Virus record (IMG/VR): IMGVR_UViG_2740892423_000010
Location: 1-5,206 of that record
Length of the DNA stretch: 5,206 nt
Strand: one strand, 5' to 3'
From: a virus
Taxonomy: Duplodnaviria; Heunggongvirae; Uroviricota; Caudoviricetes
Position numbers and translations under genes: made by a program. The notes below the pieces were generated by a model that was not told where the DNA came from, did not search any database, and worked only from the letters and a program-made list of their open reading frames with translations. Below, piece after piece: positions 1-5,206 of this stretch. How positions within the stretch are numbered: position 1 is the first letter of the stretch; every line of letters begins with the position of its first letter.

Positions 1-87
1 CTCACTGAAGCTGAGAGCTTCTTCGCCTTCGGCAAGGCCTTCGAAGTATTCTTCGTAAGCCTTTTCCATGATTGTGTCGAAATCCAT
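1..87 (-). CDS. Partial small acidic hypothetical protein (start at 87, runs off left edge of window); translation begins MDFDTIMEKAYEEYFEGLAEGEEALSFSE
   Basis: Open frame on minus strand from ATG at 87..85 through position 1 with no stop. The ATG lies 1 nt after the upstream gene's TGA (TGATATG), suggesting coupled translation. Position matches a ydfB-like gene after ydfA in Qin-type prophages, but identity is not confirmed. Confidence 0.4.
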   Translation of the reverse strand, partial: MDFDTIMEKAYEEYFEGLAEGEEALSFSE

Positions 88-88
88 A

Positions 89-244
89 TCACTCGCCTGA
101 ATTTCTTTCCAGCCAGCGACGAGCGCCAGTTTCGGTTTTAAACGTTTTGCTTTTGGTATACGTCATCGCGGTGAATGTGCCGTCCTGGTTGGGAAACACG
201 CCGTATACCAGAGATTCGTTGTTGCCAAGATCGATAGTATCCAT
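89..244 (-). CDS. ydfA: Small phage protein, YdfA-like (51 aa: MDTIDLGNNESLVYGVFPNQDGTFTAMTYTKSKTFKTETGARRWLERNSGE)
   Basis: Minus-strand ORF ending with TGA at 91..89. I prefer the internal ATG at 244 because it is preceded by a GAGG Shine-Dalgarno about 5 nt upstream and gives a 51-aa product that matches my recollection of E. coli Qin-prophage YdfA. The ORF track's longer version starts at 322 (77 aa). Confidence 0.55.
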   Translation of the reverse strand: MDTIDLGNNESLVYGVFPNQDGTFTAMTYTKSKTFKTETGARRWLERNSGE

Positions 245-420
245 GTTGACCTCATTTCCCCTTAACGCCGGGGGAGCGGAACAAAAACCTGCTGCATAGT
301 TAAAGTTGAACCCTGCCGTCATGTTCTTACGCCTCGGGCTGGCTACTTATCCCCTGACCACTGCCTGGTAACTCGAGGTATTGCCCTGCGTTCTGTGGGG
401 CGGGGTGGGTTGGTGGAAAT

Positions 421-464
421 AATCTACAATTAAAAACTGTTTTGTGTCAACAGTTTTTAATTGT
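421..464 (-). promoter_or_regulatory. Operator-overlapping promoter for the ydfA-like operon: palindrome ACAATTAAAAACTGT-N9-ACAGTTTTTAATTGT (426..464) with minus-strand -35 TTGACA (450..445) and -10 TAGATT (426..421)
   Basis: Perfect 15-bp inverted repeat with 9-bp spacer read directly from sequence. On the minus strand the spacer contains a consensus TTGACA, followed 18 nt later by TAGATT. Near-identical to the palindrome at 1462..1500. Confidence 0.55.
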
Positions 465-473
465 TGGGCTGGG

Positions 474-501
474 TAAAAAAAACTCCCTCGAATGAGGGAG
501 T
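474..501 (-). terminator. Rho-independent terminator ending the repressor-antitoxin-toxin operon
   Basis: On the minus strand: GC-rich hairpin ACTCCCTC-ATTC-GAGGGAGT (501..482) followed by a run of 8 T (plus-strand A-run 475..482), placed 17 nt after the toxin stop at 518. Confidence 0.6.
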
Positions 502-517
502 ATGAAAATTGTTCAGT

Positions 518-805
518 TCAGATAGGGAAGGGAAATTGTCGGCGGGCATGCACAATATTTGCAATTTCAATGCTTGAAGCTGCTACTCGGTACAAAACGA
601 TATAATTAGGGTGAACCACAATTTCCCGCAAACCGGATACTCGATCACTTGGCGGATATAGATATGGATGCTCGGAGAGGGCTAAAACAGACGTTTCAAT
701 ACGTATTTTTAGTCTGCGTGCTGCAGGAATATTTTCCTTAGCAATATAGGCTACGATCTGACGCAAATCATCGCGAGCAGATGGTAGCCATAAAATGGGT
801 AACAT
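518..805 (-). CDS. parE: ParE/RelE-family type II toxin (95 aa)
   Basis: Translation has the ParE-like pattern (N-terminal DL..I..YI helix region, C-terminal YRV...I.I..I.HARR). Its ATG overlaps the upstream antitoxin stop by 1 nt (TAATG on minus strand), typical of toxin-antitoxin coupling. Confidence 0.88.
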   Translation of the reverse strand: MLPILWLPSARDDLRQIVAYIAKENIPAARRLKIRIETSVLALSEHPYLYPPSDRVSGLREIVVHPNYIVLYRVAASSIEIANIVHARRQFPFPI

Positions 806-996
806 TACTCGCTCCTGTTAGTTACAGCAATTTGAGCAATAAGATTTTCTATTTCAGCCATTACCTCGTCATGTGGAATTGAGGGACGAGGGTCTGCAAG
901 GCTTGACGCCACTTTAGCGCGCAACCATTCGTTGTAACTGTTTTCTTGTTCGGTAGTTTCGAATTCTGAAACTATCGGAGAAAGGGCTGTACTCAT
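805..996 (-). CDS. paaA: Small antitoxin, PaaA-like (ParE-associated antitoxin), 63 aa
   Basis: 63-aa ORF directly upstream of and overlapping the toxin start. Strong RBS (GAGGAG, about 7 nt spacing). N-terminal half (ALSP.VSEFET.EQENSYNEWLRAKVA.SLADPRP.IPHDEV) matches my recollection of PaaA2 from E. coli O157:H7; family assignment is not search-verified. Confidence 0.8.
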   Translation of the reverse strand: MSTALSPIVSEFETTEQENSYNEWLRAKVASSLADPRPSIPHDEVMAEIENLIAQIAVTNRSE

Positions 997-1023
997 GGCA
1001 TAACTCCTCTTCTTGTACAGTGG

Positions 1024-1425
1024 TCATGCCCGGCGGCTTTTTTGTGCCGCCAACCACCGGGCAATGGTTTCTTCCATTGATTTTTTCTTGTCTTTGATTT
1101 CTTGAAGCATTTTTTCTTGGTCTTCCTCTGGAAACGCACTAAAAGCCTGGAGCAGTTCGCGTTGGCGAGGGCCAATTTTCATCGTGTCAGGGGTGAAAAT
1201 TTGCTCCCCCTCTTCAGGAGGCAATAAAAACCAATGCAATGGATGCCCTGTAACCTCAACCAGTTTATCCAAACTTGAGGCTTTAGGTGTAGCCTTACCG
1301 CTGACCCATTGTTGAACAGTTTGTTGTGTCACACCAATTCTACGGGCCAGCTCAGCCTGGCTCCATCCAGTTTCCTGAAGAAGCTTGCTGATTCTGTACA
1401 TAGATACTTCTAGAGCGTTCATCAT
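1024..1425 (-). CDS. paaR: HTH XRE-family phage repressor, DicA/PaaR-type (CI analogue), 133 aa
   Basis: Helix-turn-helix motif (WSQAELARRIGVTQQTVQQWVSG) plus a C-terminal segment (ELLQAFSAFPEEDQEKMLQEI) resembling DicA-type repressors. Divergent from a Cro-like gene and co-oriented with the antitoxin/toxin. No SD before the ATG at 1425, but a TAAAAT -10 sits 6 nt upstream, suggesting a leaderless mRNA. Alternative in-frame start at 1401 (MYRISK...). Confidence 0.85.
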   Translation of the reverse strand: MMNALEVSMYRISKLLQETGWSQAELARRIGVTQQTVQQWVSGKATPKASSLDKLVEVTGHPLHWFLLPPEEGEQIFTPDTMKIGPRQRELLQAFSAFPEEDQEKMLQEIKDKKKSMEETIARWLAAQKSRRA

Positions 1426-1534
1426 TATTCAATTTTACAGGTAAATACTGTTAAAAGCATCACAATAAAAAACTGTTGATCGCGTACAGTTTTTTATTGT
1501 AGGCTTTGCCTGTAGTTTTTTAGAGGAGGGCAAA
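1426..1534. promoter_or_regulatory. Divergent immunity control region: operator palindrome ACAATAAAAAACTGT-N9-ACAGTTTTTTATTGT (1462..1500), candidate plus-strand promoter for the Cro-like gene (-35 TTGATC 1476..1481, -10 TAGGCT 1500..1505), candidate minus-strand repressor promoter (-10 TAAAAT = plus 1432..1437)
   Basis: Perfect 15-bp inverted repeat with 9-bp spacer read from sequence. Promoter hexamers are by-eye matches to sigma70 consensus. The plus-strand promoter and operator have the same geometry as the 421..464 unit. Strong RBS AGAGGAGGG (1522..1530) before the ATG at 1535. Possible degenerate half-site TGTAGTTTTTTAG at 1511..1523. Confidence 0.6.
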
Positions 1535-1807
1535 ATGCTAGATAGCACTCGCGAAAAAATTAGGCAGAAATACACTCAAGCTGAAATAGGTCGTTATATG
1601 GGGGTCGCTCAACAGACTGTTTGGCAATGGTTTAGCTTTGGTGTTCCCCCAAAGCAGGTAATTCCGTTATGTCAGCTAATGAAGTGGGAAGTTACCCCGC
1701 ATGAAATTCGCCCTGATATTTATCCTAACCCAACCGACGGGCTGCCTTGTGGAAATAAGTGTATGGCGAATGAATCTCTGGCGGTGAACAATGAAAATCA
1801 CCCCTGA
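1535..1807 (+). CDS. ydaS: Cro-like HTH regulator, YdaS family (90 aa)
   Basis: Strong RBS. HTH motif (AEIGRYMGVAQQTVWQW) followed by a VTPHEIRPDIYPNPTDG segment that I recognise as characteristic of YdaS-type Cro analogues. Divergent from the repressor gene. Confidence 0.85.
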   Translation: MLDSTREKIRQKYTQAEIGRYMGVAQQTVWQWFSFGVPPKQVIPLCQLMKWEVTPHEIRPDIYPNPTDGLPCGNKCMANESLAVNNENHP

Positions 1808-2342
1808 ACAGGTTCGTGAGGCTCTGGATGCCTGGGTATGCCGACCAGGAATGACACAGGAGCAGGCGACGATATTAATCACGGAAGCATTCTGGGCTCT
1901 GAAAAAACGCCCGAACATTGATGTTCAACGCGTCACGTTTGATGATGGCGCGGTTGATCAACGGGCGCTGGGCGTTAACCGGGTGAAGATATTCGAACGC
2001 TGGAAAGCTATCGACACCAGGGATAAGCGTGAAAAATTCACGGCGCTGATTCCGGCAATTATGGAGGCTATCCGGATCAGCGATTTCAGGTTGTATTGTG
2101 AAATTACTGACGGAAAAAGCATTACGTACATGATCGCCGGGTTAAACAAAGAATATGGCGATGTGGTGGAGTCCGGGCTGCTTTTTGCGGATCCAGCTGT
2201 TGTGGAACGTGAGACTGACGAGCTTATAGAAAAAGCTATTGCTTTCAAGCACGCGTATCGTCAGCAATACCAATATTACTTTGCAGATAAACAAATATCT
2301 GTCTGGGGTTCGTATGAGTATCGATGCACTACGATGGGCTAA
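1791..2342 (+). CDS. ydaT: YdaT-like protein (CII-analogue candidate), 183 aa
   Basis: ATG at 1791 overlaps the ydaS-like 3' end by 17 nt (coupled translation). Position immediately after a YdaS-type Cro matches the ydaS-ydaT pair of Rac/CP-933-type prophages. Family assignment rests on position and recalled similarity, not a search. Confidence 0.7.
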   Translation: MKITPEQVREALDAWVCRPGMTQEQATILITEAFWALKKRPNIDVQRVTFDDGAVDQRALGVNRVKIFERWKAIDTRDKREKFTALIPAIMEAIRISDFRLYCEITDGKSITYMIAGLNKEYGDVVESGLLFADPAVVERETDELIEKAIAFKHAYRQQYQYYFADKQISVWGSYEYRCTTMG

Positions 2343-3354
2343 AAAGGTGAAAACCGGCAGTTCATCCAGTAAGTCAGTATTGACCTGGCTTGCTGATATG
2401 TGCGGTGCCGATTTGTGTGCATACCCGTCTGTATCTGCCCTGGCAGAAGTAACGGAACTGAACAAAAAGACTGTGCAGGACAGCTTACGACACCTGATGG
2501 AGATTGGGTTAATTGTTGATACCGGTGAGAGAAAAGGCAGAACAAAGCAAATTGTGGTGTACCGACTTATCGGTGTAGAAGAAAGTGTTGCCGAGCCTGA
2601 ATACACCCAAAAACGGGAGTCTTTAAAGGTGGGTAAAATTGGTGCTGTTAATAAAAACAGTACCGAAAACGGTTATGTTTCAGCACAAAACAGACCCAAA
2701 AACGGAACTCTTAACTGCATGGAAAATAACCAAAGACACCCAAATTTTCCATTAAAGACACCCAAAAACGGATCACGGAACCCAAAGGAACCCAAAGATC
2801 TAAACCCCACACATAACGCACGCGAGAGTGCTCCGACCAGTGAGCAGGAAGTTTTGTCGTTACAGGCAGTGCCACCCGTATTCCTGGATGGCCTGAGCGA
2901 ACCCATCGGAAAATTTCCGATGACCGATAGCTGGCATCCGTCACGGGATTTTCGACGACGGGCTGCGTTGTGGGGGATGGCTTTGTCGGAGCCGGAATTT
3001 ACACCTGCTGAACTTGCCGCATTCCGGGATTACTGGAGCGATGAGGGCAAAGTGTTCACGCAGGTTCAGTGGGAGCAGAAATTCGCCCGTCACGTAAATC
3101 ACGTCAGGGCGCAGGTTAAACCAGTCAGCAAGGGGGTAAACCATGCAGCAGCACCAGGTGGCACCGCATCACGGGCAGTTCAGGAAATTCGGGCAGCACG
3201 TGAGCAGTGGGAACGTGAAAACGGATTTATCAGCGACGGAAACGGCGTGGAAGCTGTGGGAACTCATGGGGGAGGTTTATTCGAACCGCTGGACCCAGAA
3301 GAACGGGGCCGCACCTTCGAAGCTCTGGATTGCACAGATTGGCGCGATGACTGA
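2314..3354 (+). CDS. Replication initiator (lambda O functional analogue): N-terminal winged-helix domain plus C-terminal DnaT-like domain, 346 aa from ATG 2314
   Basis: N-terminus (LRWAKKV...SVSALAEVTELNKKTVQDSLRHLMEIGLI) resembles replication-initiator wHTH domains. C-terminal segment GKFPMTDSWHPSRDFRRRAALWGMALSEPEFTPAELAAFRDYWSDEGKVFTQVQWEQKFAR closely resembles the C-terminal region of E. coli primosomal protein DnaT as I recall it. The ORF track starts at a TTG (2239); I prefer ATG 2314, which has a GGGG SD-like element 5 nt upstream. Confidence 0.8.
   Translation: MSIDALRWAKKVKTGSSSSKSVLTWLADMCGADLCAYPSVSALAEVTELNKKTVQDSLRHLMEIGLIVDTGERKGRTKQIVVYRLIGVEESVAEPEYTQKRESLKVGKIGAVNKNSTENGYVSAQNRPKNGTLNCMENNQRHPNFPLKTPKNGSRNPKEPKDLNPTHNARESAPTSEQEVLSLQAVPPVFLDGLSEPIGKFPMTDSWHPSRDFRRRAALWGMALSEPEFTPAELAAFRDYWSDEGKVFTQVQWEQKFARHVNHVRAQVKPVSKGVNHAAAPGGTASRAVQEIRAAREQWERENGFISDGNGVEAVGTHGGGLFEPLDPEERGRTFEALDCTDWRDD
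2603..2799. repeat. Iteron-like direct repeats (consensus about GACACCCAAAAACGG) inside the initiator gene linker; candidate origin of replication
   Basis: Direct repeats read from sequence: ACACCCAAAAACGG 2603..2616, AGACCCAAAAACGG 2692..2705, GACACCCAAA 2735..2744, GACACCCAAAAACGG 2757..2771, GGAACCCAAAG 2778..2788 and 2788..2798, with a degenerate copy ACCGAAAACGG at 2662..2672. Several start-to-start spacings are about 22 bp or multiples. They encode a low-complexity PKNG-rich linker between the two protein domains. Confidence 0.5.
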
Positions 3355-3808
3355 GCAGCAAATCCGTCAGGTCTGCCGCCAGTGCATGGACCGCTGCCGG
3401 ACGGGTGAAACATGGCCTCCGGACCTGGCTGAGTTTGTGGCGCTGATTTCGGAGAGTGGGGCAAATCCATTTGGTCTGACGGTGGATGCTGTGATGGAGG
3501 AGTACCGCCGCTGGCGCAATGAGTCTTGGCGATACGACGGAAGTGATAAGTACCCGTGGTCTCAGCCTGTGCTGTATCACATTTGCCTCGAGATGCGTTC
3601 AAAGGGGATTGAGCGCCAGATGACCGAAGGGGAATTAAAACGGCTTGCAGAACGGCAACTGACGAAATGGGCAAAGCATGTTGGTAACGGACTGAGTGTT
3701 CCACCCGTCCGTAGGCAACTGGCAGCACCCATACGTCCTGCGGGACCAACGCCAATTGAGTTGCTGAAACAGGAATATGAACGCAGGAAAGCGGCTGGTT
3801 TTGTTTGA
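3143..3808 (+). CDS. Lambda P-like replication protein (helicase loader), 221 aa
   Basis: Strong SD (AGGGGG 3131..3136, 6 nt before ATG 3143). Translation ([14 protein letters not shown] ... [15 protein letters not shown] ... [10 protein letters not shown]) parallels lambda P as I recall it (PFLPSPGQFVAWCRE ... YPWKSNAHYWLVTNL ... ELRRKAADEL). Overlaps the 3' end of the initiator gene by 212 nt in a different frame. Confidence 0.8.
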
Positions 3809-3842
3809 GTTGAGAAGTAATTTTTACCGGGAGGAAATTTTA

Positions 3843-4613
3843 ATGGAAACCGTTTTTGATGCACTGAAAGCAATGGGAAAAGCCACGTCGGTGGAACTGG
3901 CCGCGCGACTTGATATCAGTCGTGAAGAAGTGCTGAACGAGCTGTGGGAACTCAAAAGAAATGGCGTCGTTGATAAAACAGGTCATACCTGGTTTCTGGC
4001 TGGTGAAGGTGAATCCGGGGTAACCGAAGAGCAGCCAGTACAATCTGAAGCACCGGATGTGCTAACCGGGGTGGGCGAACAAAAAGTTACCGCTGACATG
4101 ATGATTGAGTTTATCGGTCAGGAGGGGGCTAAAACGTGTGAGGAACTGGCGAGTAAGTTCGGTGTCAGCACTCGCAAGGTTGCTTCCACGCTGGCGGTAG
4201 TAACCGCAACGGGGAGGCTGGCACGCGTTAATCAGAACGGTAAATTTCGTTACTGCATACCGGGCGATAATTTACCAGCAGAACCGAAAGCCGCATTGGT
4301 AGCGGAAACTGATGGTAAATCCTTTCCTCAGCCAGCGGGGGTTGCGTTACCAGTACAGGAGGTTGCAACACAGGAAGATATTAAAACAGAAACTGTGGCG
4401 GACATTGTGCAGTCGTTGCCATCGTTCACTGAAACGCGAGCCAATGGCCTGATTTTACCATCTCTGCATATGGCAAACCGCGAACTTCGCCGGGCGAAAA
4501 GTCATGTCCAGAAGTGGGAGCGAGTCTGCGCCGCGCTGCGGGAGCTGAACAAGCACCGGGATATTGTCCGACAGATTGTCGATTCCTCCAGTCGTATTGT
4601 GTCGGAAAAGTGA
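3843..4613 (+). CDS. Hypothetical phage protein with two tandem winged-helix-like modules and a basic C-terminal helix, 257 aa
   Basis: Strong RBS (GGGAGG 3830..3835, 7 nt before ATG 3843); the ORF track's upstream ATG at 3777 has no usable SD and overlaps the P-like stop. Two internally similar wHTH-like segments ([30 protein letters not shown] and [30 protein letters not shown]). Function unknown. Confidence 0.7.
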
Positions 4614-4629
4614 TTCCAGGGGAGGGCTT

Positions 4630-5052
4630 ATGGCAAAAGTATCTACACAGGAAGAGCGGGAAAAAATTAAAGGGCAGGTTGTTGAACTCGTACGCCAGAG
4701 TGGGCGTGAGACGTTACGACAACTGGAAGCGAAAACAGGTGCGACAAGATATCTGATGAGCGTTCTCGCCAGAGAGCTGGTTGCCAGTGGCGATGTATAC
4801 AACTCTGGTTACGGGTTATTTCCGTCTGAACAGGCGCGTAAGGACTGGCAAAACGCCCGCAAAAAACTCTCAAGGGCAAAGGTGAAGAAAACGGCTGTGG
4901 TTGATCCGGACCTTATCAGGTCATTACCTGACGGAGAAATACGCCGCTACGACAGGCGTCAAAACATAATTTGCCGTGAGTGCCGGAAAAGCGAAGTTAT
5001 GCAGCGTGTACTGGCGTTTTATCGGGGAAACTTTCAGGAGGTGATGCTGTGA
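4630..5052 (+). CDS. Hypothetical phage protein with one winged-helix-like module, 141 aa
   Basis: Strong RBS (AGGGGAGGG 4618..4626) before ATG 4630; the ORF track's TTG at 4564 overlaps the previous gene. Segment ETLRQLEAKTGATRYLMSVLARELVASGDV resembles the wHTH modules of the upstream gene. Basic, Lys/Arg-rich C-terminal half. Confidence 0.65.
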   Translation: MAKVSTQEEREKIKGQVVELVRQSGRETLRQLEAKTGATRYLMSVLARELVASGDVYNSGYGLFPSEQARKDWQNARKKLSRAKVKKTAVVDPDLIRSLPDGEIRRYDRRQNIICRECRKSEVMQRVLAFYRGNFQEVML

Positions 5053-5206
5053 GCGAATCAAAATGTCAGGTTAATAGCAATCAGATAGAACCATGTGCGG
5101 TACTGGCAAAAGCCCTTGAGCATGATGCTGAATACACGACGCGAAAAGGTCTGCTGATATACAAAATCTGGAATGAGAGTTTAACTCGCGGCCCTGATTT
5201 GGTGAT
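5049..5206 (+). CDS. Partial hypothetical CDS (candidate GTG start at 5049, runs off right edge); VSESKCQVNSNQIEPCAVLAKALEHDAEYTTRKGLLIYKIWNESLTRGPDLV...
   Basis: Open frame to the window end. GTG overlaps the upstream stop (GTGA) and is preceded by AGGAGG (5036..5041). No family recognised. Confidence 0.3.
   Translation, partial: MSESKCQVNSNQIEPCAVLAKALEHDAEYTTRKGLLIYKIWNESLTRGPDLV

Follow-up and report, generated by a model that had tools for sequence, protein, structure and literature searches.

Loaders of the lambda P family bind and remodel the host DnaB and are recruited by their cognate initiator; classical lambda genetics showed that the O-P relation is specific and that the C-terminal part of O goes with the cognate P. 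In lambda itself the two genes overlap by only 4 nt (ATGA), the iterons lie inside O (NC_001416 annotation) and the O frame stays open for 34 codons past its UGA. A read-through product, O' (Yates et al., 1977, as cited in PMC3640518), is described as a minor species of unclear role that needs stop-codon read-through. Lambda P has a disordered N-terminal lasso (domain I, residues 1-29), compact domains II (from about residue 30) and III, and a C-terminal lasso, and the authors of the structure speculate that the N-terminal lassos of P engage O (PMC12661323). Out-of-frame overlaps of another kind are known from the overprinted genes of phages and viruses, for example phiX174 A/B/K/E and lambda Rz/Rz1 (PMC8227390, PMC6195259).

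Here we analyse a window of 5,206 nt (positions 1 to 5,206 of the Caudoviricetes record IMGVR_UViG_2740892423_000010), which carries a lambdoid (DicA/Rac-type) prophage replication module. The module resembles lambda in its order, a cro-like gene, a gene in the cII/YdaT position, an initiator with internal iteron-like repeats and a loader; in its loader, a member of the Pfam family Phage_lambda_P whose predicted structure and domain layout match lambda P; and in that the C-terminal part of the initiator travels with the cognate P. There are also key differences: (i), the overlap of initiator and loader is 212 nt long; (ii), the initiator core consists of a putative helix-turn-helix (HTH) and a DnaT-like domain and does not have the lambda O fold; (iii), the initiator ends in a conserved helix and an acidic tail, whereas lambda O ends in ..LDLTNTDWIYGVDL. 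As in lambda O', the initiator polypeptide continues in its own frame into the region that encodes the N-terminus of P; unlike O', there is no stop to read through here, so the extension would be a constitutive and conserved form of the initiator. With overprinted genes the locus shares a same-strand, out-of-frame overlap, an asymmetric constraint and an ordered segment written over a disordered, fast-evolving one, but neither gene is embedded in the other: the overlap is terminal and reciprocal, each gene being constrained in one half, and the two are ancient, homology-supported replication genes and presumed interaction partners. The literature that we searched holds no earlier description of a long overlap of the O/P type, which is not proof of its absence.

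Results

The initiator gene spans 2314..3354 on the plus strand, from the ATG at 2314 to the TGA at 3352-3354, and encodes 346 aa, the same extent that PGAP gives in relatives. The lambda-P-like helicase loader gene, in its long form, spans 3143..3808 on the same strand (stop TGA 3806-3808) and encodes 221 aa. Between them lies the overlap, 212 nt at 3143..3354 (+), in which the last 70 initiator codons and the first 70 loader codons are read in two frames, the P frame being the initiator frame +1. The P frame opens after a TAA at 3137-3139 and has its first ATG at 3143-3145; GGGGG at 3132-3136 is the Shine-Dalgarno sequence (SD) of this ATG, with a spacer of 6 nt. Read at the sequence level, the downstream gene has its own SD and ATG inside the upstream gene, and the coordinates in the preliminary description (initiator open to the TGA, P-like SD and ATG at 3143, 212 nt shared) are all confirmed. 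Two further ATGs lie in the P frame. One, Met42 (3266..3268, +), would give 180 aa; it is nearly invariant, is the start that PGAP chooses in other genera (180-181 aa) and could be a secondary start. The other, Met69, lies within ATGACTGA at 3347..3354 (+), overlaps the initiator stop and would give 153 aa. The preliminary description had rightly noted the ATG at 3266 and had overlooked that at 3347, the PGAP start in E. coli. The initiator stop itself is composed of the T of a Thr/Ser codon and the GA of a Glu/Asp codon of P.

Both frames are free of stops across the overlap in 30 of 30 diverged loci from about 15 genera, in which the overlap measures 149-224 nt. They are also intact in 78 of 78 IMG/VR viral contigs, with an overlap of exactly 212 nt; these contigs are only 96-99% identical E. 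coli variants, good for integrity and weak for selection tests. The third frame of the overlap consists of stop codons at 5.5% (2-6 stops per diverged locus), and the non-coding frames of the initiator and P genes at 4.4-6.6%. An initiator stop soon after 3140, or an indel that restores a short intergenic gap, had been named beforehand as what would speak against the overlap, and no relative has either. An SD (GGAGG, GGGGG or GAGG) followed by ATG stands at the equivalent of 3143 in all 23 diverged loci examined, and no other start codon upstream in the P frame is conserved among the diverged loci. This start is set in a disordered initiator linker (3115..3165, +; AF2 pLDDT below 50) that hosts the P ribosome-binding site and is hypervariable, with a per-column variability of 0.5-0.7 from which the three invariant columns of the ATG are excepted; the initiator residue over the P ATG is only H, N, Y or D (NAT codons) and is followed by a codon beginning with G. 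In an orphan P gene that has no initiator (L033), the initiator frame has decayed and contains stops.

Selection was estimated frame by frame in 23 sequences with our own re-implementation of an OLGenie-style dN/dS; the Z values are approximate because all pairs of related sequences were used. Over the whole overlap dN/dS is 0.57 (Z=-2.8) for the initiator and 0.29 (Z=-4.9) for P. As controls, the DnaT domain gave 0.23 in its real frame and 1.05 in a fake +1 frame, and the P-only region 0.106 and 1.26 in its real and fake frames. The two halves of the overlap differ: in the first, the initiator is at 0.42 (Z=-3.2) versus a marginal 0.67 (Z=-1.7) for the P frame, and in the second, P is at 0.12 (Z=-3.7) and the initiator at 0.96. 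The pattern of codon-position variability switches from that of the initiator to that of P at 3226-3232, 12 codons upstream of Met42. Within E. coli, polymorphism shows trends in the same direction, with counts that are small and individually not significant.

How often a frame would stay open by chance was computed exactly by dynamic programming. With the P protein fixed and synonymous codons drawn at random, an open initiator frame over the last 40 overlap codons has a probability of about 0.15 per lineage, which multiplies to 1.5e-15 across 18 clades and, were only 6 of them independent, to 1e-5. For the P frame, given the initiator protein, the chance of remaining open over the first ~30 overlap codons is 0.5-1.0. 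Since P-frame selection is marginal and chance openness high in that part, the case for a start at 3143 rests on the conservation of SD and ATG and on the position of the periodicity switch. Where a P-synonymous site is also the first base of an initiator Asp/Glu codon, its variability is 4-fold lower than at the other P-synonymous sites (0.12 vs 0.51, MWU p=4e-4), and constraint on the initiator in the second half is seen only as frame openness and at five such acidic sites. The comparison of codon positions and synonymous sites across homologues, which had been proposed in advance as a check, finds constraint in both frames.

The loader matches PF06992 (Phage_lambda_P) with 60.8 bits against a cutoff of 26 (E=1.8e-16) over aa 56-188, a match that begins upstream of Met69. 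A profile of its subfamily matches lambda P (8v9t_V, E=7e-7), with homology detectable only from aa ~61, likewise upstream of Met69. This profile-to-PDB search was repeated without locus L008 because the first profile held this lambda-like member; an alignment to lambda P over the loader's whole N-terminus, obtained with the first profile, was lost without L008 and was discarded. Its homologues, 212-223 aa long and 50-73% identical to it, align over 92-100% of the query. In the AF2 model of P, aa 1-26 are disordered (pLDDT below 50) and helices begin with aa 25-46; the best Foldseek matches of the model are lambda-P chains, of which the complete one, 9oa1_Z, aligns over 219 columns, and by AF2 and Foldseek the four-part architecture of lambda P is found in the 221-aa form only. 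A putative role of the P-like protein in DnaB loading and initiator recruitment is supported by the position of its gene directly 3' of the initiator.

From N to C the initiator comprises a putative HTH, a middle part whose coding sequence contains iteron-like repeats, the DnaT-like domain, a linker and, at its end, a conserved helix followed by an acidic tail. The HTH is a weak HTH_36 match (20.8 bits, cutoff 25). Within the gene, at 2599..2796, a repeat search found five direct repeats AAAGACACCCAAA that resemble iterons, of which three continue with AACGG; they are a candidate origin, placed like ori-lambda inside O. The DnaT-like ssDNA-binding domain (aa 201-267; 2914..3114, +) is confidently assigned to PF17948 (63.8 bits, cutoff 25, E=1.2e-17; AF2 pLDDT above 90), so that Pfam bears out both gene identities given in the preliminary description, that of an initiator containing a DnaT-like domain and that of a gene like lambda P. 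In this the protein resembles E. coli DnaT and the prophage 'replisome organizer' proteins, as its database names also say. E. coli DnaT is a 179-aa primosomal protein that lacks HTH, iterons and a P-linked tail; here, by contrast, the DnaT domain is only one of several interchangeable cores with the same tail. Because the Pfam domain ends at aa 267, the overlap starts 9 codons past it, in the linker, and thus close to the domain end and not exactly at it as had been proposed. Downstream of the linker lies a conserved helix of 18 residues (aa 285-302; 3166..3219, +), with the invariant motif T.SRAVQ.I..A...W, which AF2 predicts as a helix with a confidence of only about 61; in the P frame the same nucleotides encode part of the disordered leader of P (aa 1-26/29). 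Periodicity switch, dN/dS and pLDDT together mark the segment 3229..3351 (+) as a predicted disordered acidic C-terminal tail of the initiator and, in the other frame, as the first helices of the compact domain of P.

The tail and P form a unit that is common to DnaT-, Phage_rep_O-, lambda-O-C-terminal- and DUF1376-type initiator cores and to unclassified ones, at least five architectures in all. A search with the 70-aa tail among 1.84 billion representatives found no independent occurrence of the tail: the genuine matches, about 20, are all C-terminal in initiators of ~320-360 aa, and low-complexity matches in giant proteins were set aside as not genuine. The type of tail co-varies with the type of the N-terminal half of P. 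Lambda and the loci L008, L036 and L038 combine a ..NTDWI.GV.. tail with a lambda-type N-terminal half, even where the C-terminal half of P is of the window type, and L039 and L040 hold a third pair of tail and P N-terminal half. E. coli relatives whose tail and P are of another kind show a mosaic breakpoint at ~3109. The initiator end LDCTDWRDD had also been likened to the lambda O end, a resemblance that we reject as evidence: its D-W/R pattern arises because P has conserved WIAQIG codons there, W and R alternating with the third base of an Ile codon.

Discussion

The overlap is very probably a genuine, selectively maintained dual-coding segment, a judgement based on comparative sequence data. 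That both products are real was one of the readings offered in the preliminary description, and it is upheld by the conservation of both frames and of SD and ATG across many enterobacterial genera and by purifying selection in both. On this reading a single transcript would be read by ribosomes in two frames: those starting at the ATG at 2314 would make the 346-aa initiator and end at the TGA at 3352-3354, while others would start independently at the SD and ATG (3132-3136 and 3143) and make the 221-aa loader, a protein of lambda-P architecture in which a disordered, 'lasso'-like N-terminal leader precedes compact domains. Between 3143 and about 3228, selection would act mainly on the linker and helix of the initiator, P contributing a disordered leader under little constraint. 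In the remainder, from about 3229 to 3354, it would act mainly on P, on the first helices of its domain-II equivalent, and in the disordered acidic tail of the initiator only the open frame and the acidic residues would be protected.

Other readings have to be weighed against dual coding. The loader might start later, at the ATG at 3347 (153 aa, with an 8-nt ATGACTGA overlap and termination-reinitiation) or at 3266 (180 aa), the upstream P frame then being an untranslated by-product. PGAP indeed calls a loader of 153 aa in E. coli and one of 180-181 aa in Citrobacter, Klebsiella, Brenneria and Pectobacterium. Coupled genes classically show an arrangement such as ATGACTGA, Met42 hardly varies, and over the first ~30 overlap codons the P frame is often open by chance and under marginal selection. 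A coupled pair of the ATGA type is nevertheless not what the homologues show: ATG 3347 is present in the window and its close relatives, and Met69 is not conserved, being Leu in many homologues. A start there would delete conserved, structured N-terminal sequence of P, including the region upstream of Met69 where both the lambda P homology and the Pfam match begin. Nor does Met42 mark the beginning of constraint, as P-type codon periodicity is established by 3226-3232 and, also upstream, Trp39 is invariant and Trp36 conserved; the orphan P genes L030 and L033 likewise begin upstream of this W-x-x-W motif. Both methionines stand within or after confidently predicted helices, Met42 within the helix at 25-46, and starts at either would truncate P helices in the AF2 model. 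With an SD and ATG universal at the 3143-equivalent and no other conserved upstream start codon, we regard a later sole start, as the preliminary description had allowed, as improbable, and structure and homology favour the 221-aa P. A shorter isoform from Met42 may also be made, because this residue hardly varies and a weak GGGA precedes it.

The opposite reading, also raised at the outset, places the error in the initiator: its tail beyond about 3140 would be an artefact of a lost stop, an indel or a sequencing error, and the real end would come soon after the DnaT-like domain. The E. coli initiator L008 has the same DnaT domain and ends only ~100 nt past it, and the second half of the tail lacks global amino-acid constraint, but L008 carries a different, non-homologous tail and P module and not a truncated version. 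The tail and its end point recur, free of indels relative to the window, in the 30 diverged loci and the 78 viral contigs, the helix motif is invariant and under purifying selection, and the tail motif is kept on unrelated cores; by these comparative data the artefact reading is refuted, and we give it a negligible probability. A programmed +1 frameshift, with the constraint hand-over about 3230 as the shift site of an initiator-P fusion, would suit the +1 relation of two open frames and the passage of constraint from initiator to P at one point, and one database protein, P0178, is such a fusion. The contig of P0178, aligned with a 95%-identical relative, has 13 gap columns, most of them single bases lost from homopolymer runs; it is riddled with such deletions, and the fusion is therefore a sequencing artefact. 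The hand-over region is moreover indel-rich and variable in sequence and length, with no conserved slippery or stall motif, and a frameshift would leave unexplained the universal SD and ATG at 3143 as well as the selected openness and stop position of the downstream initiator frame, which makes it very unlikely. We consider it just as hard to credit that 3143-3354 is conserved as a nucleic-acid element (an RNA structure, a protein-binding site on the DNA or a promoter): within E. coli relatives it does vary visibly less than its flanks, but the clean 3-nt periodicity that switches frame is produced only by coding constraint. Scans of the overlap found no Rfam match and no promoter- or terminator-like site, and folding of the RNA around the P start is no better than that of shuffled sequences (z=+1.19).

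If the dual-coding reading holds, what might the arrangement do? By analogy with lambda O and P, we infer that the C-terminal helix and tail of the initiator may serve as a docking element for the N-terminal half of the cognate loader; the co-variation of tail and P N-terminal half could also reflect mere physical linkage and not binding. With the docking element written inside the loader gene, the initiator-loader pair would be passed on as a single cassette, able to combine with many origin-binding cores. We hypothesize, tentatively and as a possibility rather than a probability, that the overlap acts as a 'specificity cassette', in which the DNA for the N-terminal region of the loader, possibly for the very segments that make contact, encodes a loader-docking element in its other frame, and in which recombination therefore cannot part the loader from its docking site. 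Were this true, any origin-binding core would become a working initiator as soon as it recombined in frame immediately 5' of the P ribosome-binding site, the occurrence of five or more initiator architectures with one tail and P unit would be explained, and the O-P interface would be pinpointed.

Of 5,426 complete E. coli genomes, 1,249 (about 23%) carry the tail and P element, which occurs in O157, O26, O111 and O145 prophages among others, and RefSeq annotation shortens its loader to 153 or 180 aa, losing the N-terminal lasso and part of domain II. To our knowledge, dsDNA phages seldom have two ancient, homology-supported genes that share a long, conserved dual-coding region on the same strand, and the overlap appears to be a clean natural example of reciprocal constraint partitioning, ordered over disordered in both directions. 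How a lambda-type initiator recruits the P-DnaB complex is structurally unresolved (PMC12661323); the 18-residue initiator helix and acidic tail, together with the N-terminal half of P, offer a short and specific candidate interface. The locus further suggests a way for lambdoid phages to exchange their origin specificity by mosaic recombination while the compatibility of initiator and loader is kept.

Immunity and replication region

The window comes from a lambdoid prophage of the DicA/Rac type, of which it is the immunity and replication region. Its + strand carries a Cro-like gene (1535-1807), a YdaT-family gene (1791-2342), the replication initiator (ATG 2314 to TGA 3354, 346 aa), a lambda-P-like helicase-loader gene (P; PF06992, E=1.8e-16) and DUF1627 and DUF977 genes. 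Among 5,426 complete E. coli genomes, 1,249 contain close relatives (87-97% identity), and phage records, both Stx2a/PPompW and Rac-type, contain them too. The initiator combines a weak N-terminal HTH_36 match with a DnaT domain (PF17948, aa 201-267, E=1.2e-17). Its Asn/Pro/Lys-rich low-complexity middle is encoded by a stretch holding five iteron-like direct repeats (AAAGACACCCAAA, three extended by AACGG) at 2599-2796, a candidate replication origin whose position resembles that of ori-lambda within O. The YdaT-family gene and the initiator overlap out of frame by 29 nt (2314-2342), as in the PGAP annotation of relatives (locus L004: 392-943 and 915-1955). Beside the repressor gene (1024-1425), two minus-strand ORFs, 805-996 (63 aa) and 518-805 (95 aa), abut with base 805 common to both; judging from sequence, we take this pair (518-996) to resemble an antitoxin and a ParE/RelE-type toxin.

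A conserved dual-coding segment

The initiator and P genes overlap out of frame by 212 nt (3143-3354), as the preliminary description had stated: the initiator frame is open to the TGA at 3352-3354 and the P frame, shifted by +1, runs from the ATG at 3143, which does have a strong Shine-Dalgarno (SD) sequence (GGGGG, 3132-3136, 6-nt spacer). The +1 frame opens at the TAA at 3137-3139 and ends at 3808, giving a P protein of 221 aa. We compared 32 loci (one genome per species), seven annotated E. coli/phage loci and 80 viral contigs. Wherever this P subtype adjoins an initiator, the distance from a P-frame ATG to the downstream initiator stop is 149-224 nt, with just 0-36 nt between the opening of the P frame and that ATG. 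The overlap occurs in Escherichia, Citrobacter, Enterobacter, Klebsiella, Pluralibacter, Phytobacter, Kluyvera, Salmonella, Scandinavium, Pectobacterium, Buttiauxella, Erwinia, Samsonia and Limnobaculum, and the exact 212-nt arrangement is intact in 78/78 usable viral contigs. Stop codons are absent from both frames of the overlap in 30/30 loci, against 5.5% in its third frame and 4.4-6.6% in the non-coding frames of the two genes. The start signals are conserved: GGAGG, GGGGG or GAGG stands 6-10 nt 5' of the P ATG in all 23 diverged loci examined, and the three columns of the ATG are invariant within a linker at whose other columns 50-70% of sequence pairs differ. The initiator residue over the ATG is only ever His, Asn, Tyr or Asp (NAT codons), followed by a G-initial codon. 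In Leclercia adecarboxylata NCTC13032 (L032, 2438-3147) the P-like gene is split, with 83 codons in one frame followed by 147 aa in a second, and the initiator stops earlier; this is probably a prophage copy in decay.

Selection was measured by re-implementing the OLGenie logic, which sorts the sites and differences of each frame into nonsynonymous and synonymous and takes dN/dS of one frame with the other held nonsynonymous (codon bootstrap; codon alignment of 23 DnaT-type sequences, which are related). The controls separate real from fake frames: 0.23 (Z=-5.4) for the initiator against 1.05 (Z=0.4) for a fake +1 frame in the DnaT domain, and 0.106 (Z=-6.6) for P against 1.26 for a fake continued initiator frame in the P-only region. 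Over the whole overlap, dN/dS is 0.57 (Z=-2.8) for the initiator and 0.29 (Z=-4.9) for P. The first half gives 0.42 (Z=-3.2) and 0.67 (Z=-1.7), respectively, and the second half 0.96 and 0.12 (Z=-3.7). Within E. coli, polymorphism among 60 unique haplotypes shows the same tendency, on small counts. The comparison of codon positions across homologues shows this hand-over column by column: up to ~3225 the third initiator position is the most variable, and from 3226-3232 on it is the third P position, P positions 1 and 2 being nearly invariant. Open frames, conserved SD and ATG, and purifying selection in each frame relative to the fake-frame controls support the suggestion that both products are real, and on this comparative evidence the overlap is a real, conserved dual-coding segment. 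Constraint on the P leader, its disordered N-terminus, is weakly indicated.

Alternative readings of the overlap

Start calls for the P family disagree between pipelines and genera (140, 153, 180-181 and 212-223 aa; RefSeq-annotated relatives, loci L004-L007 and proteins P0023-P0036). In PGAP annotation P starts at the 3347-equivalent in E. coli (153 aa) and at the 3266-equivalent in other genera (180-181 aa); one phage submission has 140 aa, and the 221-aa form appears in many gene calls from NCBI and metagenomes. A later start had been proposed at the next in-frame ATG, 3266 (Met42); that ATG is present, but a further one at 3347 (Met69), which together with the initiator stop forms ATGACTGA, had been overlooked. 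Production of P solely from either site is disfavoured: the periodicity switch lies 12 codons 5' of ATG 3266, so the P start must precede it, and the only conserved start there is ATG 3143. Trp36 and Trp39 are conserved, SD and ATG are universal, and Met69 is unconserved. The predicted structure also argues against later starts. In an AF2 model built on a 40-sequence alignment, P aa 1-26 have pLDDT below 50 and confident helices span 25-46, 48-54, 60-67 and onward, placing Met42 within the first helix and Met69 past the third. Comparison across relatives speaks for the longest form, and an additional Met42-initiated isoform is possible.

The proposal that the initiator tail, its C-terminal end inside the overlap, is an artefact of a missing stop or frameshift is ruled out by its conservation across relatives. 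A +1 frameshift producing an initiator-P fusion is very improbable: there is no conserved shift site, and the sole fusion protein in databases (P0178) comes from a metagenome contig (L042, JGI Ga0490067_22167) full of homopolymer deletions, whose 13 gap columns against a 95%-identical Klebsiella locus, mostly single-base, account for the false fusion. Conservation of 3143-3354 as a nucleic-acid element is not supported either, and it would not produce a 3-nt periodicity that switches frame.

The initiator tail

With each lineage's P protein fixed and synonymous codons random, the chance that the initiator frame stays open over the last 40 overlap codons is 0.04-0.31 (geometric mean 0.15), with a product of 1.5e-15 over 18 clades, or ~1e-5 if six are independent. 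P-synonymous third positions vary much less where they supply an initiator Asp/Glu codon with its first base than elsewhere (0.12 vs 0.51; Mann-Whitney p=4e-4), for example in P Lys53, AAG in all sequences, and the initiator stop consists of a conserved T, third position of a P Thr/Ser codon, plus GA. In L033, where P has no initiator upstream, the P sequence survives but several stops interrupt the equivalent frame. For these reasons the tail appears not to be entirely a passenger: its translation, acidity and approximate length are maintained, and it can otherwise vary freely. Global constraint on the last ~40 residues is only faintly suggested.

Such orphan P-like genes occur in Erwinia spp. 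(L030, 2492-3118; L033, 2471-3040), separated from neighbour genes by a long AT-rich spacer, with shorter leaders of 26 and 9 aa, respectively, before the conserved W-x-x-W. Judging from sequence, the neighbours are presumably chromosomal (a tRNA-thiolation-like protein, a PTS-like transporter), and these loaders may be domesticated or remnant.

Structure and modularity

The initiator model shows a confident DnaT domain, a disordered linker containing the P SD and ATG, a helix (aa 285-302, 18 residues) with the invariant motif T.SRAVQ.I..A...W, and a disordered end. In each direction of the overlap, the predictions place an ordered segment over a disordered one. Foldseek matches the P model significantly only to lambda P chains in the PDB, among them the complete 9oa1_Z, which aligns over 219 columns. 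With lambda-like members left out, a profile of the subfamily still finds lambda P, beginning at window-P aa ~61 (E=7e-7). In lambda P, residues 1-29 (domain I) are a disordered N-terminal lasso and the compact domain II begins at ~30 (PMC12661323); the model of the 221-aa P reproduces this layout of disordered leader and compact helices.

Helix, tail and P form a unit joined to several kinds of initiator core: HTH with DnaT (window), other N-termini with DnaT (L013, L020), DUF1376 (L027) or DUF1376 with DnaT (P0188), a Phage_rep_O N-terminus (L024, P0208), HTH/DnaD_N with a lambda-O-type C-terminal domain (L025, L035) and unclassified cores (L026, L029, L031). L008 has a window-type DnaT domain, a different tail (..LDWNNTDWIEGVWDE..), a lambda-type 258-aa P and a 29-nt overlap, with a breakpoint from window-type modules at ~3109. 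Lambda's tail ends in LDLTNTDWIYGVDL and O and P overlap by 4 nt. L036 and L038 pair a lambda-O-type domain and a tail ending NNTDWI.GVFDE.SF with a mosaic P (2195-2887 and 2219-2926), lambda-type in its N-half (..FPAS..ENGITTMEQVNAG..) and window-type in its C-half, implying a recombination joint between loader domains II and III. L039 and L040 carry a third tail and a third type of P N-half. In these combinations, tail type tracks the type of P N-half, and neither the initiator core nor the DnaB-binding half of P. The tail may be a docking element for the N-half of its cognate loader, although linkage alone could explain the co-variation.

Precedents and implications

The lambda O-P module and overprinted phage genes are both known, and the overlap is a new variation on each; the ORFs are not new, the long P being already in databases as 'replication protein'. 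Literature searches found no publication describing or analysing the initiator/P overlap. Its nearest precedent is lambda O', which PMC3640518 (citing Yates et al. 1977) describes as arising by read-through of O and ending within the P N-terminal coding region. Beyond its UGA the lambda O frame (L041, 1083-1190; phage lambda 39582-39690) continues for 34 codons without a stop, within the 5' part of P, consistent with that old report as cited there. The O-P contact was left open by the 2025 lambda P-DnaB structures, whose authors speculate that the P N-terminal lassos engage O (PMC12661323). In the window's lineage, the putative docking element would be embedded in the loader gene, so that tail and loader would be inherited together. 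For annotation the overlap matters in practice, and it provides a testable hypothesis on initiator-loader recognition.
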